From Escherichia phage vB-Eco-KMB38, in the sequence record OR525701.1: a DNA stretch of 64,000 nt, one strand, 5' to 3'. Of the stretch, positions 6,624 through 64,000 are shown in pieces (positions within the stretch are counted from its first letter, which is position 1; the number at the start of each line of letters is the position of its first letter). The notes beneath the pieces are model-generated. The model had not been told where the DNA came from. It ran no database searches and saw only the letters and a program-made list of their open reading frames with translations. The position numbers and the translations under genes were made by a program.

Positions 6624-7754
6624 TTATGGATATGTATAGATGATACCAGTTTCTAAAGCAGTTTTATGGATGATATATCCATTACGCGATTCTTGAACAT
6701 CAACTTCTGGATAATCTTTCATCATCTTCTGGAGAGTGTAACGATGCAGGTAGTATTTACTATCTGGGTCGTCAATTTTCCAATCTTTACCTTCTTCAGT
6801 CATTTTTTGGATTTCATCCATAACCCACCAACCGCACCAGATGTAAGCTGAAGTACGATGTGGAAGAGGATGAACATAAGGTAGTTCACCTTCTGGTTCC
6901 GGAGCAACTTTATCAGTTACCTGAACTTGACCCGTCGTTTTAACTGTTTTACTATCATAATCGGTTGCAGTAACAACTGCAGTAACTTCAATAGTTTGAC
7001 TTCCAACAGATGAGGTATCAACTGTATACACATTAGTCGATCCTTCTACAGGAGAAGAATCTTTCTTCCATGAATAAGTAATTTGTGCCGATTCTGGTGC
7101 ACCAGTCACATTAGCAGTAAATGTAGCCGAAGCATCTTGTTGAACACTAATAGAAGGAGGAGTCAATGTAACCTGTGGATTCATTGTCTTCTTATTAACA
7201 GTCAGTGATACTTCATTAGAAGTAACTTCTTTTGCATTATAATCATCAGCAGTTACTTGGGCTACGCATTTAATTCTTTTGACTCCATTTGTAGTTGGAG
7301 TATAGTTAAATGTAGAGTTAGTTTCTCCACTAATTTGAGAATCGTCAACATACCATTGATACGTAGCAGATGCACCTGATGGCTGCGAAGCCAAAGCAGC
7401 AGTAAATTTAACAGCTGTTCCAATTACTCCTGCTGGAGGACTATTGGGAGTTACGGCTAATGTAGTCGTCTGGGTTTTGTTTTTGACTGTAATAGTTGTA
7501 CTAATTTCAGCTGTTTCAGCTTCACTGTCAGGAACTGGATTTGTTGCAACTACTTTAATAGTTTTTTGTCCAGCAGGACCCTTTAATACATAACTAAAAG
7601 TTGCTGACGTTTCTTCCTGTGGAGCATCGTCTACAGTCCAAGCATATGTAATAGGTCCGTCTCCAGTTTGACCGCTGGGCGTAGCAGTAAACTGCTTAGT
7701 CTGATCTATAACTCCGGTAGGCGTTTTAGGAGTTATATCAACTGTAAAAGCCAT
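6624..7754 (-). CDS. hoc: highly immunogenic outer capsid protein Hoc
   Basis: 376 aa as T4 Hoc; three to four Ig-like repeats (TYxW...V...KxxG) and conserved C-terminal capsid-binding domain. Confidence 0.9.
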   Translation of the reverse strand: MAFTVDITPKTPTGVIDQTKQFTATPSGQTGDGPITYAWTVDDAPQEETSATFSYVLKGPAGQKTIKVVATNPVPDSEAETAEISTTITVKNKTQTTTLAVTPNSPPAGVIGTAVKFTAALASQPSGASATYQWYVDDSQISGETNSTFNYTPTTNGVKRIKCVAQVTADDYNAKEVTSNEVSLTVNKKTMNPQVTLTPPSISVQQDASATFTANVTGAPESAQITYSWKKDSSPVEGSTNVYTVDTSSVGSQTIEVTAVVTATDYDSKTVKTTGQVQVTDKVAPEPEGELPYVHPLPHRTSAYIWCGWWVMDEIQKMTEEGKDWKIDDPDSKYYLHRYTLQKMMKDYPEVDVQESRNGYIIHKTALETGIIYTYP

Positions 7755-7763
7755 AAGTTATCC

Positions 7764-8432
7764 TTATTTTAATGTTACGAAAGAAGAATTACGAGTTTCG
7801 CGAATTAGAACTGATCCATCGCGATTAATATAATAAATTAAGCTAAATAATGTTTGGTGTGCCGACGCATGTTCAAAACTGGTTGGGCGAGATTTCCAAT
7901 CAGGTGTTTCGGCTATCCATTGATAAATCCACCAAGGAACAGTAACATACCCTGGGCCTTTGCCTAATTTAATGAGTGTAGGACTAAAATTTTCAGGCAG
8001 AACAAATTTTACTTCTTTATTTACTTCTGGCTCAGGCTCTTTTTCAGATTCAACAACCTGAGTAATTGCTTCTTCAAATTTATCATGGTCGAATTCTATT
8101 TCTTGTTCGACAACTTCTAATACTTCAACTTGTTCTGCCGGAGAATCAAACAACAGAATAGCTTCTTCTTTAACTTCTTCGTTGGTGAAATTAACACCGT
8201 CCACATCATCTGCGGCAGTAATTAAATCGGTGATAGATAATCCATCAGTTTCAGGTAATGGTTCATTAGCCAGTGCGTTAAGAGCTTCTTCGATATCAAT
8301 AACAATATTATCGAATGATTTTGTTTTCTTAACACTAATACCAAATTGTGCCGCATATTCAAACAGTTTAGCTTTGGCTTCCTTTTTATCAGAAAGAGCA
8401 CGTAACTCTTCAATATAGTCTTTATCGATCAT
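7764..8432 (-). CDS. inh: Inh (inhibitor of prohead protease, hoc.1)
   Basis: 222 aa acidic protein at the hoc-uvsW position where T4 has inh (226 aa). Confidence 0.7.
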   Translation of the reverse strand: MIDKDYIEELRALSDKKEAKAKLFEYAAQFGISVKKTKSFDNIVIDIEEALNALANEPLPETDGLSITDLITAADDVDGVNFTNEEVKEEAILLFDSPAEQVEVLEVVEQEIEFDHDKFEEAITQVVESEKEPEPEVNKEVKFVLPENFSPTLIKLGKGPGYVTVPWWIYQWIAETPDWKSRPTSFEHASAHQTLFSLIYYINRDGSVLIRETRNSSFVTLK

Positions 8433-8445
8433 GGTATTTCCTCAT

Positions 8446-8453
8446 TATAAATA
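8446..8453 (+). promoter_or_regulatory. late promoter TATAAATA upstream of the homing endonuclease gene
   Basis: Exact TATAAATA 29 nt before the ATG at 8482. Confidence 0.45.
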
Positions 8454-8481
8454 TAACTATATTTATTACATGGAAAAGAGT

Positions 8482-9213
8482 ATGTATCACTTTGTTTATG
8501 AGACCGTAAATTTAATTAATGGTAAAAAGTACATTGGCAAACATTCTACAGAAAATTTAAATGATTCGTATCTAGGGTCAGGTGTTGCCTTAAATCGCGC
8601 TATCAAAAAATACGGAGAAGAATCATTTAAACGTTCAATAATTAAACAATTTGAAACTTCCGCTGAAGCTTTAGAATACGAAGCTCAGTTAGTAACAGAG
8701 GATTTGGTCAAATCTAACGAGTATTATAATATGCGCCAAGGCGGTGAAGGTGGAAGGTATAAGTACACCGAAGCTGATAAGACTAAAATGTCTAATAGTG
8801 CTAAAGAACGAATAAAGAGGCTTGGTCATAATCTTTTAGGAAAACACAGATCGGAAGAAACAAAAAGAAAACTATCTGAAACAAATAAACGTCGATACTC
8901 TGAAGACCCAACATGCCACGGGCGGTATGGTACAGGAAAGCCAAAGATTGATAAAATTAAAGGTCCTAAAAATCCTACAACTCTAAATAAAATTTGTGTT
9001 AACAACGGTAAAGAAAACAGATTTATATCAGCCGAGGACCCGATGCCTGAAGGATTTGTAAAAGGAATGGTCCAACTTAATAGAAAATCTAGAAAGGGCT
9101 GTGAAGTAAAACCTACGACCACCGGCAGAATATGGGTAAATAACGGGGCTATAAATAAATTAGTAAATCCGTTATCCATCCCAGATGGATATGTTAAAGG
9201 CCGTTTAAGGTAA
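8482..9213 (+). CDS. GIY-YIG homing endonuclease (seg-like, at the T4 segE locus)
   Basis: N-terminal GIY-YIG module (YHFVYETVNLINGKKYIGKHS...YLGSG...R...E...N) plus repeated NUMOD3-like K/R-rich motifs; start chosen at ATG 8482 after GGAAAAGAG RBS (ORF track frame opens at 8431). Confidence 0.85.
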   Translation: MYHFVYETVNLINGKKYIGKHSTENLNDSYLGSGVALNRAIKKYGEESFKRSIIKQFETSAEALEYEAQLVTEDLVKSNEYYNMRQGGEGGRYKYTEADKTKMSNSAKERIKRLGHNLLGKHRSEETKRKLSETNKRRYSEDPTCHGRYGTGKPKIDKIKGPKNPTTLNKICVNNGKENRFISAEDPMPEGFVKGMVQLNRKSRKGCEVKPTTTGRIWVNNGAINKLVNPLSIPDGYVKGRLR

Positions 9214-9218
9214 TTATT

Positions 9219-45482: not shown

Positions 45483-48400
45483 ATGGTTGACATCAAACGT
45501 AAGTTCAGGGCCGAAGATGGTCTTGACGCAGGCGGTGATAAGATAGTTAACGTTGCGCTTGCTGACCGCACAGTTGGCACCGATGGCGTGAACGTTGACT
45601 TTTTGGTGCAAGAAAACACCGTACAGAATTATGACGATACGCGCGCGTATACAAAAGATTTTATTGTTCTTTATGATAATCGTTTTTATCAAGCTTTAAA
45701 CGATATTCCAGCTCCGGCAGGCCCTTTCTCTTTGGCTAAATGGAAGGCAACTCGTACAGATGCAGAATGGATTACAGTTCAAGGCGGAGATTTCCAATTA
45801 TCAGTAGGTAACTCTATTGCGGTTGATACTTCAGCTGGCACTGATATTAATTTCACTTTGCCTCAAAATCCTTTAGATGGCGATACAGTTATTTTGTCTG
45901 ATATTGGTGGTAGAGTAGGCTATGTAAAAGTTCAAATTACTGCAGAGGCTCAAAGTATTGTAAACTTTAGAGGACAACAGGTTCGTTCAGTTTTAATGAC
46001 GCACCCAAAATCTAAAATGGTCTTCATTTTTAGCAACCGCCTATGGCAAATGTATGTTTCTGATTACGAACGTAATGCAGTCACAGTAACTCCTGCTAAG
46101 CCATATCAGGCGCAACCTAATGATTTTATCATTCGACGTTTTACATCAGCCGCTCCTATTAATATTACATTGCCTCGTAATGCTAATAATGGCGATATTA
46201 TTAATTTAGTGGATTTAGACAAATTAAACCCATTATATCACACAATTGTCAAAACTTACGATGAAACAACTTCTATACGAGAAGCTGGTGTTCATGTAGC
46301 AGAAGGACGTAATACTGCGGAAGCATTCTTTGTTTATGATTCTGCCAATAGTTTATGGCGTGTTTGGGAAGGTGACCAGAAATCTCGTTTACGTATAGTT
46401 CGTAATGATACTGATTTACGCCCTAATGAAGAAGTTCTTGTTTTTGGAACTAATAATGATACAATCTCGACGGTAAATCTTACTTTGCCTACAGATATTT
46501 TGTCTGGCGATACTGTTAAAATATCGTTGAATTATATGCGTAAAGGGCAAACTGTAAAAATTAAAGCTGCTGAAGGCGATACAATTGCTAGCAGTATTTC
46601 TTTATTACAGTTCCCAAAACGTTCGGAGTATCCACCTGATGCACAATGGGTTTCTGTTAGTGAGTTGGAATTTAATGGTGATACTTCGTATGTACCTGTA
46701 CTTGAGTTAGCTTATATAGAAGATTATTCATCTGAAACAAAATATTGGGTAGTTCAACAAAACACCGTAACCGTCGAACGAGTCGATGCATCGAGCAATA
46801 CCACTCGAGCTCGTTTAGGTGTTATTGCTCTTGCTTCTCAAGCGCAAGCAAATGTCGATTTAGAAAATGCTCCTGGTAAAGAACTGGCTATTACTCCGGA
46901 AACATTAGCAAATCGTACAGCAACTGAAACTCGTCGTGGTATTGCTCGTATTGCAACAACTGCACAAGTTAACCAGAATACCGATTTTGCATTCCAAGAC
47001 GACTTGATTATTTCTCCTAAGAAATTGAACGAACGTACAGCAACTGAAACCCGTAGAGGTGTTGCTGAAGTTGCAACTCAGGCTGAAACTAATGCCGGAA
47101 CAGATGATACCACTATTATTACTCCTAAGAAATTGGATGCCCGTCAAGGTTCTGAAGTTTTATCTGGTATTGTAAAATACACATCTACGACTGGTACTAC
47201 AGCTGCTACTATTCGTGGTAATGCTGGGACTAACGTTTATAACAAAGCCGTAGATAATTTAACTATTTCTCCAAAGGCTCTTGACCAGTATAAAGCTACC
47301 CCTACTCAGCAGGGTGCAGTAATTCTTGCTATTGAAAGTGAAGTTATCGCTGGCGAATCACAAGCCGGTTGGGCTAATGCTGTAGTGACCCCTGAAACTC
47401 TGCATAAGAAAACTTCTACTGATGGACGTATTGGTTTAATTGAAATTGCTACGCAAGCAGAAACTAACACTGGAACTGATTATACTAGAGCAGTAACGCC
47501 TAAGACGTTAAATGATAGGAAAGCTACGGAAGGATTATCTGGCATAGCCGAAATTGCTACGCAAGTTGAATTTGATACTGGAACTGACGATACTCGTATC
47601 TCGACTCCACTGAAAATTAAAACTCATTTTGATTCTTCTGACCGTACCAGTGTTAATTCTGATTCCGGACTTATTGAAGAAGGAACCTTGTGGAACCATT
47701 ATACTCTTGATATTTCTAAAGCAAATGAAACACAACGTGGTACACTTCGCGTAGCGACCCAGGCAGAATCTAATGCAGGAACTTTAGATGATGTTCTTAT
47801 TACTCCTAAAAAGCTTTTAGGGACTAAGTCCACTGAAACGTCTGAAGGCGTAATTAAGGTTGCTACTCAGGCTGAAACTGTAACAGGAACTTCTGCTAAT
47901 ACTGCTGTATCACCTAAGAATTTAAAATGGATTGTTCAATCAGAACCATCATGGACTGCTACTACGGCGATTCGTGGATTCGTTAAAACTTCATCCGGTT
48001 CTATTACATTCGTTGGTAATGATACGGTTGGTTCAACACAATCTTTAGAATCATATGAGAAAAATAGCTATGCGGTATCACCATATGAATTAAACCGTGT
48101 ACTTGCTAACTACTTACCGTTGAAAGCTAAAGCAGCTGATAGTAATTTGTTAGATGGTCTAGATTCTCTTCAGTTCATCCGTAGAGACATCGACCAGACG
48201 GTTAATGGTTCTTTAAGTCTTACTAAACAGACCAACCTGAGTGCTCCTTTAGTATCTACAAGCACTGCTTCTTTTGGTTCCGAAGCATCTGTTACTCGTA
48301 GATTAACTCTTAACGATTCTAGCGGTTCCGAAATAGTTTTCACTAAAGGAACCCAATCTCTTAGTAATAAAGAGAATTTCGTTGTTAGAGCATGGGGTAA

Positions 48401-49316
48401 TAGCGCTACAGATGGTGCCCGCGATACAGTATTTGAAGCGGGTGACGAAACAGGATACCATTTCTATTCTCAGCGCGCTGCTGATAATAGAGTATCATTT
48501 AATATTAATGGAACACTTTATTCAACAGGTATTGTTTCTACAAATGGATTAAATGTTACAGGTGTTTCTACCTTTACAGGGCCTATTAGTGCTACAGGCG
48601 AAATTGTTTCTAGTTCTCCTATTGCATTCAGAGCTATTAATGGTAACTATGGTGTTATGCTTTATAATGCTGGTAACAGTTCTTATATTGCATTAACTAA
48701 CTCAGGTGACCAGACCGGGACGTTTAATAACTTACGCCCTATCACGATTAACAACGCCACAGGCTTAGTTCGTCTTGACAATGGTGTTCAAATCACGAGT
48801 GGTGCAACAATAACTACTGGTGGGTTAACTGTAAATAACAGAATTATTTCTAACGGCGTTAAAACTGCTACTGTTTATACCGATAAACCAACAGCTTCTA
48901 CTGTAGGTTTTTGGTCTATTGACATTAACGATTCTGCTGTATATAGCCAATTCCCTGGATACTGGACGCGTGATAACAAAGGTAACCGTGACCAAGAAAT
49001 TAAATATCCTGGTACTTTGACTCAATTCGGCAATAGCTTAGATTCGCTTTATCAGGATTGGATTTGTTATCCTACAGGTGCAAATGGCGGTAGCATTCGA
49101 TATACTCGTACCTGGCAGAAAAATAAAGATGCTTGGACTTCATTTGCAATGGTATTTGATAGTGGCAACCCACCTTCACCTAGCGATGTCGGTGCTATCC
49201 CATCTGATAATGCTGTTATTGGAAACCTTACTATTCGAGACTTCTTACAATTAGGAAATGTGAGAATTGTTCCAGACCCGGTTAACAAAACAGTTAAATT
49301 TATATGGGTTGAATAA
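45483..49316 (+). CDS. 34: long tail fibre proximal subunit gp34
   Basis: 1277 aa (T4 gp34 1289 aa); repeated ATExxRG/IAxxAxT motifs. Confidence 0.95.
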   Translation: MVDIKRKFRAEDGLDAGGDKIVNVALADRTVGTDGVNVDFLVQENTVQNYDDTRAYTKDFIVLYDNRFYQALNDIPAPAGPFSLAKWKATRTDAEWITVQGGDFQLSVGNSIAVDTSAGTDINFTLPQNPLDGDTVILSDIGGRVGYVKVQITAEAQSIVNFRGQQVRSVLMTHPKSKMVFIFSNRLWQMYVSDYERNAVTVTPAKPYQAQPNDFIIRRFTSAAPINITLPRNANNGDIINLVDLDKLNPLYHTIVKTYDETTSIREAGVHVAEGRNTAEAFFVYDSANSLWRVWEGDQKSRLRIVRNDTDLRPNEEVLVFGTNNDTISTVNLTLPTDILSGDTVKISLNYMRKGQTVKIKAAEGDTIASSISLLQFPKRSEYPPDAQWVSVSELEFNGDTSYVPVLELAYIEDYSSETKYWVVQQNTVTVERVDASSNTTRARLGVIALASQAQANVDLENAPGKELAITPETLANRTATETRRGIARIATTAQVNQNTDFAFQDDLIISPKKLNERTATETRRGVAEVATQAETNAGTDDTTIITPKKLDARQGSEVLSGIVKYTSTTGTTAATIRGNAGTNVYNKAVDNLTISPKALDQYKATPTQQGAVILAIESEVIAGESQAGWANAVVTPETLHKKTSTDGRIGLIEIATQAETNTGTDYTRAVTPKTLNDRKATEGLSGIAEIATQVEFDTGTDDTRISTPLKIKTHFDSSDRTSVNSDSGLIEEGTLWNHYTLDISKANETQRGTLRVATQAESNAGTLDDVLITPKKLLGTKSTETSEGVIKVATQAETVTGTSANTAVSPKNLKWIVQSEPSWTATTAIRGFVKTSSGSITFVGNDTVGSTQSLESYEKNSYAVSPYELNRVLANYLPLKAKAADSNLLDGLDSLQFIRRDIDQTVNGSLSLTKQTNLSAPLVSTSTASFGSEASVTRRLTLNDSSGSEIVFTKGTQSLSNKENFVVRAWGNSATDGARDTVFEAGDETGYHFYSQRAADNRVSFNINGTLYSTGIVSTNGLNVTGVSTFTGPISATGEIVSSSPIAFRAINGNYGVMLYNAGNSSYIALTNSGDQTGTFNNLRPITINNATGLVRLDNGVQITSGATITTGGLTVNNRIISNGVKTATVYTDKPTASTVGFWSIDINDSAVYSQFPGYWTRDNKGNRDQEIKYPGTLTQFGNSLDSLYQDWICYPTGANGGSIRYTRTWQKNKDAWTSFAMVFDSGNPPSPSDVGAIPSDNAVIGNLTIRDFLQLGNVRIVPDPVNKTVKFIWVE

Positions 49317-49324
49317 GAGGTTAT

Positions 49325-50449
49325 ATGGAAAAATTTATGGCAAGGTTTGGACAGGGATACGTCCAAACGCCGTTTTTATCGGAAAGCAATTCAGTTAGAT
49401 TTAAGCTAAGTATAGCGGGTTCATGCCCGCTTTCAACAACTAATCCATATATTTTGTTCCAAAACGAGCCTTTAGGGTTGCAGTCTTTTGGTATTGGACT
49501 AAATGTTAGGGTGATAAATCCGGAAAATGGAACTATAGTTGATAGTAAATTATACAATTTTGCGCCTACAAATAATGCAACTTCAGCTGCATTTATTTCG
49601 TTTGTTAATACATACGCAGATAATTTCATTTTCGCATTTATTTCTAATAACAAATTTAATTTGCCACCAGAAATAATTGAATGGTTTAAAGCTGCTGGGA
49701 GTTCAGTTATACCGTCAATTGAAGTTGCTAGTCTTGTTGATATTTCATATTCAGCGTTTTATGTTTCAGGTAAAAATACTATTGCATTAGAACACATAAA
49801 ATACAGTAATAAGAAAACAATTTCTGATTACGCAACTCCATTAGATATTGTATATGACTCTATTGCTGATATAGGTGCTACCGGCTATCCTAGACGTACA
49901 TATGAAGCTCTAGAAACGTTTTTATCTCCTGTTGGAGGAACTAACAATGAAATAAAAAGGATGCCTACATCATCCCTTGTTACTCCTATCGCAAACTATG
50001 GATTAAAGCCTACAGATTTTCTTTATTTGAAATTTCAATTAATGGCTGATGAAGAATTATTAGAGGAAGGAACCACAAGACTTTCAATTCGTTTCTTTAA
50101 GTCTCCATCTAGCTCTCCTATATCATCTAAAGATATAAACTTTGATGGAACTGCCGGGGAGTGGAAGCTATATGAAGAATACGTTGAAATACCAGCTGAA
50201 GCTGATGGCTTTACAGTATATTGTTACCGTACGGCCTCAGTCGGTCAAGGTGGACTAAGAAATGTTATTTTCACTGAAGTATCATGTAACGGAAGTATAG
50301 CAAAACCCGCCGAGTTTGGTATAAACGGTATTCGTGCTAATTACATTGATGAATCATTAACCGGTAATGATATAATGGACTTGCCTACTCAGTTATCTAA
50401 CGACACAGGTAAGGTATTTGGGCAGGAATTTAAAGAGTACACAGAATAA
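49325..50449 (+). CDS. 35: long tail fibre hinge protein gp35
   Basis: 374 aa (T4 gp35 372 aa). Confidence 0.85.
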   Translation: MEKFMARFGQGYVQTPFLSESNSVRFKLSIAGSCPLSTTNPYILFQNEPLGLQSFGIGLNVRVINPENGTIVDSKLYNFAPTNNATSAAFISFVNTYADNFIFAFISNNKFNLPPEIIEWFKAAGSSVIPSIEVASLVDISYSAFYVSGKNTIALEHIKYSNKKTISDYATPLDIVYDSIADIGATGYPRRTYEALETFLSPVGGTNNEIKRMPTSSLVTPIANYGLKPTDFLYLKFQLMADEELLEEGTTRLSIRFFKSPSSSPISSKDINFDGTAGEWKLYEEYVEIPAEADGFTVYCYRTASVGQGGLRNVIFTEVSCNGSIAKPAEFGINGIRANYIDESLTGNDIMDLPTQLSNDTGKVFGQEFKEYTE

Positions 50450-50470
50450 AGGAGACTTCGGTCTCCTTTT
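50450..50470 (+). terminator. terminator after gene 35
   Basis: AGGAGAC-TTCG-GTCTCCT followed by TTTT. Confidence 0.7.
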
Positions 50471-50474
50471 CGCG

Positions 50475-50482
50475 TATAAATA
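50475..50482 (+). promoter_or_regulatory. late promoter TATAAATA for genes 36-37
   Basis: Exact TATAAATA 27 nt upstream of ATG 50509, AAGGAG RBS. Confidence 0.65.
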
Positions 50483-50508
50483 CTTTAATATTAATAAGGA
50501 GACACGAA

Positions 50509-51165
50509 ATGGCCGATTTAAAAGCCGGAAGTACAGTTGGTGGTTCCGTCATATGGCATCAAGGCAATTTTCCTTTAATGCCAGCTGGCGATGACATCCT
50601 ATATAAAACATTTAAATTATACACCGAATATAACAAGCCAAAAGCGGCTGATAACGATTTCGTATCTAAAGCAAATGGCGGGACATATCTCAAAAAGGTA
50701 ATCTTTAACGAAGGTATTGCAGTCAAAACAGCAGATGACCAAACGAATGGTATTTTTTCTGGTGGTGGTGACGCCGCGACATTCGACCAAACAAACATGG
50801 ATATTGTTTCGTGGTATGGTGTTGGGTTTAAATCATCTCAAGGTACAGGTGAAAGAACTGTTGTAATTGATACTCGCACCGGTAATATAAGTTCTAAAGG
50901 CGTTATTGAAGCATCTCAATTCAGAGCCACAACGTTAGCACCTTTAAATAATTACGACCTTACTCGCAAAGATTATGTTGATAGTCAAATAAATACAGTT
51001 AATGCTAATGCAAACAGTCGTGTACTCCGTTCAGGAGATACGATGACCGGCGCGCTAACAGCCCCAAACTTTTTCTCACAGAATCCTGCATCTCAACCCT
51101 CGCATGTTCCACGATTTGACCAAATTGTTATTAAGGATTCTGTTCAAGATTTCGGCTATTATTAA
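50509..51165 (+). CDS. 36: long tail fibre distal connector gp36
   Basis: 218 aa (T4 gp36 221 aa). Confidence 0.85.
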
Positions 51166-51173
51166 GAGGACTT

Positions 51174-54100
51174 ATGGCTACTTTAAAACAAATACAATTT
51201 AAAAGAAGCAAAACTGCAGGAGCACGTCCTGCCGCTTCAGTATTAGCCGAAGGTGAATTGGCTATAAACTTAAAAGACCGTGTACTTTTTACTAAAGATG
51301 ACCAAGGAAATATTATTGATCTGGGTTTTGCTAAAGGTGGTAGTATTGACGGGAATGTTATTCATACAGGCAATTATAACCAAACTGGCGATTATACTTT
51401 AAATGGCGAATGTTATTCATACAGGCAATTATAACCAAACTGGCGATTATACTTTAAATGGCACCTTCACTCAAATTGGCGATTTCAATCTCAAGGGTAT
51501 TGCTCGCGTAACTCGTGATATTATTGCTGCGGGTCAGATAATGACCCATGGTGGCGAACTTATTACAAAAAGTTCAGGTACAGCACATGTTCGTTTTCAT
51601 GATTTAGCTGACCGTGAACGTGGAATCATTTTTTCTCCTGCTAATGATGGATTAACTACACAAGTTCTTAATATTAGAGTTCAAGATTACAAAGCTGGTT
51701 CAGAAAGCACTTTCGCTTTTAATGGAAATGGTTTGTTTTCTTCACCAGAAGTTTTTGGGTGGAAATCTGTATCAACTCCGGTAATTTATACCAATAAAGT
51801 TATCACCAATAAAAAAGTTAAAGATGATTATGACATCTATTCGATGGCAGACAATGTCCCATTGTCTGAAAGCACTACTGCTATTAATCATCTACGTGTC
51901 ATGCGCAATGCAGTCGGTTCTGGTATTTTCCATGAAGTTAAAGATAATGATGGAATAACTTGGTATAGTGGAGATGGATTAGATGCTTATCTTTGGTCAT
52001 TTACCTGGAGCGGCGGAATTAAATCAAGTCACTCAATTTCTATCGGTTTAACACCCGGTAATAAAGATTATTCAATATTAGGACCATCTAGCATTGCTTT
52101 AGGAGATAATGACACCGGGTTTAAATGGCATCAGGATGGATATTTTTTTACGGTAAACAACGGTACAAAAACTTTCCTTTCTGGTCCGGCGGAAACCACT
52201 AGCCTTAGAAAAATGGTTATGGGTTATTCTGTAAATGGTACTGATTTGACTACTCCTCCAACTGAAAACTATGCTCTTGCTACTGTTGTGACATATCACG
52301 ATAATAACGCGTTTGGAGATGGTCAGACTCTTTTGGGATATTATCAAGGCGGTAACTATCATCATTATTTCCGCGGCAAGGGTACCACAAACATTAATAC
52401 TCATGGCGGTTTGTTAGTTACTCCAGGTAATATTGATGTTGTTGGCGGTTCGGTTAATATCGATGGTAGAAATAATGCTTCTACGCTGATGTTTAGAGGT
52501 AACACGACCGGAGCTAGTTCAGTTGATAATATGACAATTTCCGTGTGGGGTAACACGTTTACTAATCCTAGTGTAGGTAATCGTAAAAACGTCATGGAAA
52601 TTTCTGATGCAACTAGTTGGATGAGCTATATTCAAAGACTTACTACTGGTGAAGTAGAAATGAACGTTAACGGTTCATTTGAATCATCTGGTGTTACTGC
52701 TGGAAATAGAGGAGTTCACACAACAGGCGAAATTTCATCTGGAGCAGTGAATGCTCTTCGTATTTGGAATGCAGATTATGGAGTCATTTTTAGACGTTCG
52801 GAAGGTAGTCTTCATATTATTCCAACTGCTTATGGCGAAGGCAAAGATGGCGATATCGGTCCACTTCGTCCGTTTAGTATGTCTTTAGATACAGGTAAGG
52901 TCGTTATTCCTGACCTAGATTTGAGTCATACAACTTTTGCTGAAAATGGTTTTATTAAATTCGGTGGGCATGGTGCTGGTGCCGGTGGTTATGATATTCA
53001 ATACGGCCAAGCAGCTCCTGTTTTCCAAGAAATTGATGATGACGCGGTAAGTAAATATTATCCTATTGTTAAGCAGAAATTCTTACAAGGAAAAGCTGTT
53101 TGGTCTTTAGGTACTGAAATTAATTCCGGGACTTTTGTTTTACACCATCTTAAAGAAGACGGGACCGGTGGTCATACCTCAAGATTTAATGCTGATGGTA
53201 CAGTTAATTTCCCTGATAATGTCCTGGTTGGCGGTGGTGAAGCTGCTATTGCTCGAAATGGTAATATTTTCTCTGATATTTGGAAAGTATTTACATCTGC
53301 AGGCGACGTAACTAATATTCGCGATGCAATAGCTACTCGTGTTTCTAAAGAAGGCGACAAGATGACTGGCACTCTTTGGATTAATAAAGATGCTGCTGGA
53401 ATAGTTCTTAATCCTCCTTTGGCCAGTGATTCATCATTTATTCGTTCTGATACGGCCGGGGCCAATAATTGGTATATTGGTAAAGGCGGTGCCGACAATG
53501 GTCTAGGTTTTTACAGTTATGTTACACAAGGCGGTGTATACATAACAACTAACGGTGAAATATCGCTTTCTCCTCAAGGCCAAGGAACATTTAATTTTAA
53601 TAGAGACCGCCTCCATATAAACGGTACACAATGGACCGCACACCAGGGTGGTGGTTGGGGAAATCAATGGAATCAAGAAGCACCGGTATTTGTAGATTTT
53701 GGTAATGTTGGTAATGATAGTTATTATCCTATTATTAAAGGAAAATCCGGTATTACTAATGAAGGATACATATCTGGTGTAGATTTTGGTATGCGACGCA
53801 TTACTAATACATGGGCACAAGGTATTATTCGTGTAGGTAATCAGGAAAACGGTTACGACCCACAAGCTGTATATGAATTCCATCATAACGGTACTTTTTA
53901 TGCTCCAAGCTTACTTAAGAGCAGTAGAGTATCAGCTGGTGGTGGTGACCCTGCATGGGGCGGGCCGTGTATTGTACTTGGAGATAACGATACCGGTTTG
54001 CTTTGGGAAGCAGACGGTATTTTCAACGCATATGCAAACGGCCAAGGTGTGTTTAGTTTTAGACCTGGTTTAGCTCAGACATTCGGTGATGTTAACTTCC

Positions 54101-54480
54101 ACTGTAATGCAGGTATGTATGTTCGTGATAACATTGATGTTAACGACGTTTATATTCGTTCTGATATTCGTTGTAAGTCGGAAATTAAGCTTATTAAGAA
54201 CGCTCAAGAGAAATCTAAACTATTGGGCGGTTATACTTATCTGCTTAAAAACTCTGTTACAGACGAAGTTAAACCGTCCGCAGGTTTAATTGCTCAGGAA
54301 GTTCAAGAAGTATTACCTGAACTTGTTTCTGAAGATAAAGAGACCGGACTGCTTCGTTTGAACTATAACGGTATTATTGGTTTAAATACAGCTGCAATAA
54401 ACGAGCATACAGATGAAATCAAGGAATTGAAATCTGAAATTACCGAATTGAAAGCATTAATTAAATCATTGATAAAATAA
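51174..54480 (+). pseudogene. 37: long tail fibre distal subunit gp37, reading frame broken by a 55-bp tandem duplication
   Basis: N-terminal ORF 51174-51434 ([35 protein letters not shown]..., T4 gp37 N-terminus) stops in the second repeat copy; the remainder 51403-54480 is in another frame. Removing one 55-bp copy restores a single 1083-codon ORF. Confidence 0.8.
51353..51462 (+). repeat. perfect direct tandem duplication, 2 x 55 bp
   Basis: 51353-51407 and 51408-51462 are identical (GAATGTTATTCATACAGGCAATTATAACCAAACTGGCGATTATACTTTAAATGGC). Confidence 0.95.
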
Positions 54481-54484
54481 TAAA

Positions 54485-54500
54485 AGGGCCTTCGGGCCCT
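54485..54500 (+). other. intercistronic hairpin between genes 37 and 38
   Basis: AGGGCC-TTCG-GGCCCT followed by GGAGG RBS of gene 38. Confidence 0.5.
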
Positions 54501-54510
54501 GGAGGTTTAT

Positions 54511-55290
54511 ATGGCAGTAGTAGGAATCCCTGGTTGGATTGGGACTTCAGCCGTTGCTGAAACGGGACAAAGATGGATGACGGCTGCTTCAAGGGAACTT
54601 CGTTTAGGAAACCCTTCATGGATGTCCCAATTCGCGGGCCGTTCAAGAGAAATAATTCATACACTTGGTGCAGACCATAACTTTAACGGGCAATGGTTCC
54701 GTGACCGTTGCTTTGAAGCTGGCGGCGCTCCTATAGTGTTTAATATCACCGGAAATTTAGTATCATATAGTAAAGATGTTCCATTATTCTTTATGTATGG
54801 CGATACACCGAATGAATATGTTACTTTGAATATTCATGGTGGAGTTCATATGTGGGGACGAGGTGGTAACGGCACTGTAAACGGAAACCCAGGCACAAAT
54901 GGCGGCGATGTAATCCAAAATGATATCGGCGGAAGACTTCGTATTTGGAACTATGGCGTTATTGCATCAGGCGGTGGCGGTGGCGGTGCAGTGTCATTAC
55001 AGAATAGCTGGGCTCCAAATGCTACAGCAGGTGGCGGTGGTGGTAGACCATTTGGCATCGGCGGAGGTGGCGTTAATTGGCCGGGTGGTAATGCTAGTTA
55101 TGACGCCCCGGGCGGTGCTGGTTACACTTCCCAATTCGGCGGAGGCAATGGCGGTGATGCTGGCGCTCGGGGTGGAGATGGATGGGGTAATCACTTATCT
55201 AGATCTGGCGGTGGTGCTCCTGGCAGAGCAGTATTCGGAAGTTCACCGTCATGGGGTGCTACAGGCACAATCTACGGCTCCTGGATTTAA
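54511..55290 (+). CDS. 38: receptor-recognising adhesin gp38, T2/T6 type with glycine-rich motifs
   Basis: 259 aa; conserved N-terminal gp37-binding region and C-terminal polyglycine stretches (GGGGGG, GGGGG, GGGG) separated by hypervariable segments. Confidence 0.85.
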
Positions 55291-58129: not shown

Positions 58130-58762
58130 TCACAGTACGTTAGTTACAAGGGTAATGATTTCTTTGGACACATTAGGGAAGTCAATGTAAGTATATTTAC
58201 CACCGATCTTAATCTTAACATCATTTTCAAGAGAAGTAAACAGCTTTGATTCAGTTTCTGACATGTTGTATGCAAAGATTCTAAGAGCGCCATCTCGTCG
58301 AATTTCAATTTGGCGAATGCCTAGAACTCGTTTAGCGAATCGAACTTCTAAGTTACTACGGTTTTCACCAATTTCTTTAACTTCAACTTTATCTTTAATA
58401 TTTTCAAAAACAAAGTTTGCTAATTCATGCATTTCAGGAGTAACTCCACGTGCTTTTCTAGTGTTACGTTTCTGAAGAAGTTCTGGAGCATTTTCTTGGG
58501 CAAAGAGGTCTGCAGCTTTTTGGATAATATCCATTGCTTCGCCTGTTGCTACAAGTCCGTCACCGGATTTTTCGACTAAACCTTTCTTAATCAATACACC
58601 AATGTTAGAGTTAACAACTGATGCGTTGTATTCTGCTTCCAGAGCTTCACGGACATTGGCAGCAGTGGTGAAGTTGTTCTTAATGATATAAACCATTATT
58701 GCAGCAGTTTTTTCATTCAGAGCGTTTTCAGAAGCTTTGATGATGTAAGTAACTTTAGACAT
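58130..58762 (-). CDS. motA: middle transcription activator MotA
   Basis: 210 aa (T4 MotA 211 aa); N-terminus MSKVTYIIKAS... and NSNIGVLIKKGLVEKSGDGL segment. Confidence 0.9.
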   Translation of the reverse strand: MSKVTYIIKASENALNEKTAAIMVYIIKNNFTTAANVREALEAEYNASVVNSNIGVLIKKGLVEKSGDGLVATGEAMDIIQKAADLFAQENAPELLQKRNTRKARGVTPEMHELANFVFENIKDKVEVKEIGENRSNLEVRFAKRVLGIRQIEIRRDGALRIFAYNMSETESKLFTSLENDVKIKIGGKYTYIDFPNVSKEIITLVTNVL

Positions 58763-58799
58763 TTTATTTCTCCAAATTAGTATTTGTTTTGATAGGTCT

Positions 58800-58828
58800 A
58801 TAATATCATGTTTGAAGCAAAAGTAAAC
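58800..58828 (-). promoter_or_regulatory. early promoter GTTTAC-N17-TATTAT upstream of motA
   Basis: rc GTTTACttttgcttcaaacatgaTATTAT then AGACCTATCAAAAC leader; part of a duplicated cassette. Confidence 0.55.
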
Positions 58829-58865
58829 TTTATTTTGGGCTCTTTTTCAAAAGCCCTGGTAAAAT

Positions 58866-59081
58866 TTACAAACTCATTTCTTTAATAAGGCTAATAAGTT
58901 TTGCCTTTTTAGAACGAAGCTTTTCTAAATGATGACCATTTGAACCGCGAACCACTAAAGAATTGATTTCAACTTCTAAGAAATTTAATTCTTCAACAAG
59001 TGCTTTACGGAGAGCATTCATACCAGGTTTGACTTTACCGAAACGAGTAGTTGTGTTTTGGGTTAATTTCATTTTAGACAT
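58866..59081 (-). CDS. hypothetical protein 71 aa sharing promoter/leader with motA
   Basis: Starts MSKM..., same leader and RBS as motA (MSKV...). Confidence 0.55.
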   Translation of the reverse strand: MSKMKLTQNTTTRFGKVKPGMNALRKALVEELNFLEVEINSLVVRGSNGHHLEKLRSKKAKLISLIKEMSL

Positions 59082-59120
59082 TTTATTTCTCCAATTTGGT
59101 TGTTTTGTTTTGATAGGTCT

Positions 59121-59149
59121 ATAATATCATGTTTGAAGCACATGTAAAC
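59121..59149 (-). promoter_or_regulatory. early promoter GTTTAC-N17-TATTAT (duplicate of the motA promoter)
   Basis: Near-identical to 58800-58828. Confidence 0.55.
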
Positions 59150-59174
59150 TGTTTTGTGAGAAAAATGCACAAAA

Positions 59175-63064: not shown

Positions 63065-63991
63065 TTATTCTGCAAATAATTCAGTAACGTCTGAAATTAC
63101 TTCATAACGACAAGTACGCATCTTAGCATCGCCATAGTCAACTGGGATGGACACAACATCACGCGGATGAACTTTAACCTTAACAACTTTATCTGAGCTA
63201 GAACCAAAGTAACGAATATATGATTTAGCACAAACATGTAGACCACGGGAACAAGTTTGTGTATCATCATCGTTAACACGAGTACGAGGCATTGAAACAA
63301 CTTTACCAGGCGAGTTATCAAATGTGCCACTATAGCAATCTAAATAGTCTTTACGAACTACTTTCCACGCATAGAAATGCCCATCTTTAGTGATTTCAAT
63401 ATCGTTTGCAACCAAGAAGTCGAATAAACGTTGTACAGCTTTTTCGCTTGGGTTTTCTAACAGGTTTTCAAGGAACGGCAGGTAGAATTTAAAGTCTTCG
63501 CCTTTTTCCATGGAATCAATAATACGATTAACCAGCCCTGAACGAATCTCTATACCTTGATAAAATAAACTACCACCTTCAATAGTAACATTACCGTCAA
63601 CAAACTTACTAATAGCTTTCTTGATGTTAATAAGTTCGACAGCTTTACTAAGGTTTCCTGCGACCAAATTAGCTTTAATTTCTTCAAAATTTGCATGACT
63701 TGATGGGGTCGCATTGTATGCTACGCGTCCTTCAATGATTGAAATAAATTTAGATGACGCATTCCATACGATTTCAGGACGATGGCCGCTGATAATAGGT
63801 TCATCATTTTCTGGAACTTCTTCAACTTTCGAAGTCTCATCTTCGGCTTTAAAATTCTTAACAATCTTACGAAGAGTATCTGTTGAAATGTCGAAGTAAT
63901 CAGCAATTTCCCGACGGGTCCATTGACCTGATTCAACCAGTCTGTAAGCTTCTAACTGTTCTTCTTTGGACAAGCATTTGATATTGTACAT
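63065..63991 (-). CDS. rIIB: rIIB membrane-associated rapid-lysis protein
   Basis: 308 aa (T4 rIIB 312 aa); MYNIKCL... and conserved C-terminal block FDFLVANDIEIT...YAWKVVR...MPRT.VNDDDTQTCSRGLHVC.KSYIR.FGSS.D.VVKVKVHPRDVVSIP. Confidence 0.92.
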   Translation of the reverse strand: MYNIKCLSKEEQLEAYRLVESGQWTRREIADYFDISTDTLRKIVKNFKAEDETSKVEEVPENDEPIISGHRPEIVWNASSKFISIIEGRVAYNATPSSHANFEEIKANLVAGNLSKAVELINIKKAISKFVDGNVTIEGGSLFYQGIEIRSGLVNRIIDSMEKGEDFKFYLPFLENLLENPSEKAVQRLFDFLVANDIEITKDGHFYAWKVVRKDYLDCYSGTFDNSPGKVVSMPRTRVNDDDTQTCSRGLHVCAKSYIRYFGSSSDKVVKVKVHPRDVVSIPVDYGDAKMRTCRYEVISDVTELFAE

Positions 63992-64000
63992 AATGTTTCC

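Follow-up and report, generated by a model that had tools for sequence, protein, structure and literature searches.

Introduction

In T4, spontaneous frameshift mutations include a known class of small tandem duplications. These usually have endpoints within short direct repeats, and those in the T4 rII and lysozyme spectra were obtained in non-essential genes or by conditional selection. Gene 37 reportedly undergoes tandem duplication as well: in 1996 Tetart et al. are said to have described an extended host range in T4 that results from in-frame duplications within the C-terminal adhesin region of this gene. The opposite end of the same protein, gp37, serves in fibre assembly. It is to the N-terminal region of gp37 that trimeric gp36 binds, and an infectious particle requires at least three long fibres (PMC3004832).

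Perfect repeats may also be introduced when a genome is assembled. A SPAdes-type assembler reports a circularly closed genome as a linear contig in which the first k bases equal the last k bases, and neighbouring contigs likewise overlap by k. The final default of k is 55 for metaSPAdes and for SPAdes with short reads. Overlaps of 55 bp between SPAdes 3.15.5 contigs have been reported (PMC12697093), and published SPAdes assemblies of phages are known to contain artificial overlaps of both 127 bp and 55 bp (PMC5923482, PMC12697093, PMC7077304).

Here we describe a perfect 55-bp tandem repeat that interrupts gene 37 of Escherichia phage vB-Eco-KMB38. The repeat lies within a stretch of 64,000 nt, the whole of which was analysed and which we refer to as the window. 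We conclude that the second 55-nt copy is in all likelihood an untrimmed overlap from de Bruijn-graph assembly and not a mutation of the phage.

Results

The long tail fibre locus

The region encodes the long tail fibres of a Mosigvirus (Tevenvirinae), its genes forming a cluster in the order 34-35-36-37-38-t. Genes 34, 35 and 36 encode proteins of 1277, 374 and 218 aa, the last of which belongs to the Pfam family Phage_T4_gp36. Gene 38 encodes a protein of 259 aa with the Pfam domains GP38 and Gp38_N, and is followed by a holin. The two genes that flank gene 37 are both intact. Gene 36 (50509..51165, + strand) encodes the distal hinge connector, the product that binds the N-terminal region of gp37 (PMC3004832), and gene 38 (54511..55290, + strand) encodes a T2/S16-type adhesin tip, a protein found in identical form on 13 public contigs. 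Gene 37, for the long tail fibre distal subunit, spans 51174..54480 (+ strand) as a whole.

The larger part of gene 37 is an open reading frame of 1025 aa that contains a Gp34_trimer-like domain and, at its C-terminus, the intramolecular chaperone domain Peptidase_S74. The C-terminal 170 residues of an intact gp37 homologue match the gp37 tip of Salmonella phage S16 (PDB 6f45, E = 5e-30), and hence the gene 37 product is a T2/S16-type gp37 that works with a separate gp38 adhesin, not a gp37 of the T4 type. The phage is a Mosigvirus and not T4 itself. In gene order, 6f45 homology and the presence of Peptidase_S74, GP38 and Gp38_N, the locus is the same as the S16-type gp37/gp38 system; the sole difference is an extra 55 nt in gene 37.

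A perfect 55-nt tandem repeat in gene 37

Positions 51353-51407 and 51408-51462 are identical 55-mers arranged head to tail (100% identity). Tandem Repeats Finder (TRF) describes them as period 55, 2.0 copies, 100% matches and 0 indels, with a score of 220. An exhaustive scan of the 64-kb window for units of 15-399 nt returned 51353-51462 as the sole perfect tandem duplication. The repeat originally predicted from the sequence is thus confirmed by direct comparison, by TRF and by the scan. Copy 1 (51353..51407, + strand) is native gene 37 sequence, covering codons 60-78 approximately, and aligns to the single copy in the related phages AlbertHofmann and PTK. Copy 2 (51408..51462, + strand) is identical to copy 1 and constitutes the extra 55 nt relative to all relatives examined. 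The k-mer across the boundary between the copies reads TTTAAATGGC to the end of copy 1 and GAATGTTATT from the start of copy 2. The junction 20-mer, TTTAAATGGCGAATGTTATT, is absent from any single-copy genome, and the junction 36-mer occurs once in the window as against 0 occurrences expected from shuffles.

The bases flanking the repeat differ on both sides (G at 51352 versus C at 51407; A at 51463 versus G at 51408), so that the repeat is exactly 2 × 55 nt, with no partial third copy. Endpoint microhomology is 0 nt at both edges. The duplicated residues amount to three units of a hexapeptide repeat, whose 18-nt coding repeats have local start-to-start spacings of 18, 19, 18 and 18. The 55-nt unit (55 = 3 × 18 + 1, and hence not divisible by 3) is out of register with these repeats, since unequal exchange between them would yield 18, 36 or 54 nt. 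We also considered a real in-frame duplication of 54 nt combined with a 1-nt sequencing error, and rejected it because the periodicity of 55 nt is perfect, which one indel would not have allowed.

Reading frames of gene 37

As written, gene 37 is not a single uninterrupted open reading frame of about 1080 codons but is split into frames of 86 and 1025 codons. The truncated 5′ frame (51174..51434, + strand) keeps its genuine Shine-Dalgarno sequence, AAGAGGA, and consists of 78 native codons and then eight out-of-frame codons (ECYSYRQL) before a TAA at 51432-51434. The 3′ frame (51403..54480, + strand) lies in the +1 frame relative to 51174. Removal of one 55-mer yields a single open reading frame of 3252 nt and 1083 codons, as for gp37 in AlbertHofmann and PTK.

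These results agree with much of the original prediction. The list of open reading frames and their translation bear out that the frame opening at 51174 runs into the TAA within the second copy; the remainder of the gene does continue from 51403 to 54480 in another frame, and deletion of one copy does restore a 1083-codon gp37. The prediction had assigned the attachment to gp36 to the N-terminal 77 or so residues; the native residues ahead of the junction number 78. It had also described the ATG at 51403 as created within the repeat, which is incorrect: this ATG is native to copy 1, lying wholly within it and directly after an in-frame TAA (51400-51402), and the +1 shift only places it in the downstream frame.

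The two frames overlap by 30 nt, with the ATG at 51403 positioned 29 nt upstream of the TAA. The overlap reads AAT GGC GAA TGT TAT TCA TAC AGG CAA TTA TAA, and inspection of 51403-51434 revealed no known +1 slippery motif. Anti-Shine-Dalgarno pairing at the ATG is −1.9 kcal/mol, which equals the median for all 1070 ATGs in the window, compared with −5.8 to −10.0 kcal/mol at the true starts of the tail-fibre genes; this ATG has no Shine-Dalgarno sequence or ribosome-binding site. A product starting at 51403 would be without residues 1-59 of gp37.

Comparison with relatives and public sequences

The closest records are those of Escherichia phages AlbertHofmann (MZ501047) and PTK (MW512264). Over the 4808 nt upstream of the junction the window differs from AlbertHofmann by a single mismatch, as it does from PTK over the 3530 nt downstream, and both phages carry one copy of the 55-mer and an uninterrupted gene 37 of 3252 nt. 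Megablast of 51100-51800 matched 700 phage records, the best 60 of which each aligned in two pieces that together span 646 nt, versus 701 nt in the window, equivalent to one copy. When a 70-nt query centred on the junction was used against the phage collection, only PTK and AlbertHofmann matched at 99% identity or above, both as single-copy sequences.

Public contigs gave the same picture. Among the loci shown with an identical gp38, all seven that have gene 37 wholly within the contig encode an intact gp37 (1079-1087 aa), and on contigs with a gp34 or RNase H identical to that of the window, gp37 is intact (1027-1093 aa) wherever gene 37 is complete. The 19 loci fetched by exact look-ups of gp38, gp34 and RNase H hold at most one exact 55-mer each. 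The closest of these are PTK, which differs at 15 positions over 8.3 kb, and a Logan contig, which differs at 94 over 17.9 kb, and no independent assembly of the same phage was found among the 19. The exact 86-aa and 1025-aa products have no record among 153 billion public gene positions. The exact 55-mer has no match in IMG/VR, JGI metagenomes or GTDB genomes, and the junction 36-mer none in IMG/VR.

Gene 37 is the only broken frame among the 106 open reading frames of at least 70 aa that are common to the window and AlbertHofmann; apart from gene 37, the window sequence is accurate.

Two observations concern the naming of related records. One related contig, NODE_4_length_167569, is metaSPAdes-style, and relatives OLB35 and PHB12 have a gene 37 'distal subunit' annotated twice. 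We considered OLB35 as a natural case of a split gene 37 and rejected it, the second 'distal subunit' being a misnamed gp36.

The end of the window

The last bases of the window (63981..64000) reach to 9 nt upstream of the start codon of rIIB, which is on the minus strand. The final base is homologous to the terminal base of two records that follow the T4 convention, PhAPEC2 (KF562341.1, which ends at 167318) and Shf125875 (KM407600.1, which ends at 169062), and a phage annotation guide advises that T4-like genomes be opened after rIIB (PMC8785237). The end of the window would thus appear to be the record's own end. To judge from this position, the record was very probably re-linearised by hand, through rotation to the T4 convention after assembly, since an assembler would not break a genome at the T4-convention base by chance. 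A chance cut of the window at this very base might in theory also produce the match, with odds of about 1 in 10^5 per base.

Discussion

Origin of the second copy

The repeat has the features of an untrimmed k-length overlap. Its length is that of a common assembler k (55), its copies are identical and adjacent with no extension beyond k, no relative or independent assembly examined has the extra copy and, if the window end is taken as the record end, the record was very probably re-linearised after assembly. It shares with the overlaps described for SPAdes and metaSPAdes a length of 55, perfect copies, a position that is independent of genes and a record whose orientation appears to follow a reference convention. 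Such overlaps normally sit at contig ends, whereas here the repeat is internal, which would call for an additional step of rotation or joining. We infer the assembler, its k and the rotation step from features of the sequence. The circularly permuted genome of a T4-like phage would assemble as a closed circular path, and the contig break may have fallen by chance within codons 60-78 of gene 37. Were the genome then cut and re-joined at the T4-convention origin (rIIA/rIIB) with the overlap left untrimmed, the two terminal 55-mers would come to lie head to tail inside gene 37, with an apparent +1 frameshift as the consequence. We favour this origin because the repeat length equals k, the endpoints have no microhomology, the unit is off the 18-nt register, the repeat is unique, the rest of the sequence is clean and the record appears rotated. 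The coincidence of 55 with an assembler k was not part of the original prediction.

The consensus sequence would look identical for a genuine 55-bp duplication. That the repeat is a spontaneous tandem duplication, and gene 37 a frameshift null either in the sequenced genotype or in a sub-population picked up by the assembler, is nonetheless unlikely. The duplication is present in the sequence as given and does frameshift gene 37, and nothing in the flanks points to a chimeric join: within 900 nt there is no mismatch to PTK or AlbertHofmann. Like the rII and lysozyme duplications of T4 it is short, direct, tandem, of a length not divisible by 3 and gene-inactivating, and reversion would likewise be expected by loss of one copy. 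It differs from them in affecting an essential adsorption gene, in lacking endpoint homology (its endpoints are not in short direct repeats) and in having the length of an assembler parameter, exactly the default k. The host-range duplications reported for T4 gene 37 are also tandem duplications in gene 37 of a T-even phage, but those are said to be in frame, selected and in the receptor-binding C-terminus, whereas the repeat described here shifts the frame and falls within the N-terminal region that attaches to gp36. That location bears directly on viability. Adsorption depends on gp37, an essential protein, and gp36 attaches at the N-terminal region of gp37 (PMC3004832); an allele that loses this attachment therefore cannot be the majority in a stock propagated through plaques. 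Moreover, two 55-nt direct repeats would quickly be lost by T4-type recombination, and the frequent reversion of such duplications, which the original prediction itself pointed out, speaks together with the essentiality of gp37 against a majority genotype in a plaque-forming stock. A stable majority null of an essential adsorption gene is biologically implausible, which itself counts toward an artefact. A genuine null allele therefore carries little weight: a genotype that cannot be propagated would have to dominate, and the duplication would have to be exactly 55 nt without endpoint homology. Nor was such a duplication seen in any relative or public contig examined. The original prediction had left three options, a null allele, a minority genotype or an artefact, under the headline of a biological frameshift allele; it is the artefact that is favoured here, and the headline is not.

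A real duplication might also be tolerated, through +1 ribosomal frameshifting at 51403-51431 to give gp37 with an 18-residue insertion, or through reinitiation at the ATG at 51403 to give gp37 in two parts, an N-terminal piece of 86 aa and a body of 1025 aa, which would co-assemble by means of the 18 residues they share. We regard this as very unlikely. The 30-nt overlap of the frames and the 29 nt between the ATG and the TAA would suit it, such a distance being within the range for reinitiation by bacterial ribosomes, and three extra hexapeptide units (18 residues, in frame) might suit a fibre shaft. However, the overlap has no known +1 slippery motif, the ATG has no Shine-Dalgarno sequence and pairs far more weakly than the true starts, and the arrangement is conserved in no relative examined, so that nothing suggests selection for a recoding site. 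The locus thus has neither the slippery motif nor the conserved arrangement that mark programmed frameshifts. We consider it just as improbable that the duplication is real and carried by the majority of viable phage, whether because recombination, by adding or removing a copy, switches the long tail fibre reversibly on and off, or because gp37 is made in split or recoded form. Artefacts of another kind, namely a chimeric or duplicated library molecule, an error of manual editing or the wrong joining of contigs when two related phages were assembled together, are extremely unlikely. Any of these would have the same outcome, an extra copy absent from the relatives examined, and gene 37 is a mosaic hot-spot in which the window is AlbertHofmann-like upstream and PTK-like downstream. 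Against them, AlbertHofmann-like sequence gives way to PTK-like sequence near 52416, roughly 1 kb away from the junction, and exactly 55 nt is not expected from a random chimera or edit; were two contigs joined by way of an overlap of k = 55 left untrimmed, the mechanism would be the same as the one we favour. We rejected the idea that two phages were chimerically joined at the junction itself, because the mismatches to PTK and AlbertHofmann that lie closest to it are at 50443 and 52416.

Implications

An untrimmed assembly overlap would make the record likely 55 bp too long. The gene for the receptor-binding fibre would then be annotated as two fragments or as a pseudogene, and such a split annotation would lead to errors in predicting host range, in engineering tail fibres and in pan-genome counts. 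The signature is not peculiar to this record and can be sought cheaply in deposited phage genomes: a perfect tandem repeat with a unit equal to an assembler k (55, 77, 99 or 127) in a genome rotated to a reference start.

For the phage, the repeat is most probably not a real biological feature. Its biological weight is probably none, and the real phage almost certainly has a single copy and a normal, intact gp37 of 1083 residues. If the duplication proved real in the reads, it would be an unusual lesion, viable or switchable, in an essential adsorption gene; a split gp37, if true, would comprise an 86-residue gp36-binding adaptor and a 1025-residue shaft that share three hexapeptide repeats and co-assemble.

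Mosaic structure of the tail-fibre locus

Comparison with the two closest records, the Escherichia phages AlbertHofmann (MZ501047) and PTK (MW512264), indicates from sequence that the tail-fibre locus (46600–54937) is mosaic. The window and AlbertHofmann are nearly identical from gene 34 to ~52415, with 1 mismatch in 4,808 nt upstream of the junction between the two 55-mers; beyond ~52415 identity falls to ~94%. PTK, by contrast, is nearly identical to the window over the whole of gene 37 (1 mismatch in 3,530 nt) and differs from it at 14 positions in genes 34–35. This switch from an AlbertHofmann-like to a PTK-like pattern implies a putative recombination breakpoint within gene 37, near 52416.

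Imperfect 18-nt repeats at 51369–51500, each specifying a hexapeptide, encode the N-terminal shaft of gp37, the distal subunit of the long tail fibre, and share ~60% DNA identity with one another. In the UNVERIFIED GenBank record of OLB35 (a relative; MH992122.1, 5695–6351), gene 36 is labelled 'long tail fiber distal subunit', the name also given to gene 37. A split gene in OLB35 was considered and rejected, the second 'long tail fiber distal subunit' being a misnamed gene 36.

Variation elsewhere in the window

The rIIB start codon lies 9 nt from the end of the window (63981–64000), that end being upstream of the codon. Two phage records oriented by the T4 convention, PhAPEC2 (KF562341.1) and Shf125875 (KM407600.1), terminate on the same homologous base, and the window is therefore probably the final 64 kb of a record in T4 orientation.

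The capsid decoration protein Hoc (6624–7754, minus strand) is 376 residues long in the window and 472 in AlbertHofmann. In their alignment, one Ig/PKD-like repeat seems to be absent from, or collapsed in, the window's Hoc; the shorter protein could reflect either natural variation in domain number or collapse of a repeat during assembly.

A 260-residue GIY-YIG homing-endonuclease-like ORF (8431–9213, plus strand), with Pfam matches to SegE_GIY-YIG and GIY-YIG and a sub-threshold one to NUMOD3, is flanked by the genes for a prohead protease inhibitor and a DNA helicase. A segment of ~745 nt (8474–9218) is missing from AlbertHofmann, where its flanks are only ~10 nt apart. The extra DNA in the window probably represents a mobile insertion of the Seg type.

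In the interval between motA and the gene for the topoisomerase medium subunit, two direct repeats of ~85 nt (58754–58837 and 59073–59158; 84–91% identity, ~320 nt apart) flank a 71-residue ORF (58866–59081, minus strand), for which a Pfam search returned no match. Each of them resembles a promoter/RBS cassette plus a gene's opening codons. AlbertHofmann and L004 have the small ORF, whereas L003 lacks it (L003 and L004 are both relatives' loci); this distribution is consistent with small genes being gained and lost through such cassettes.
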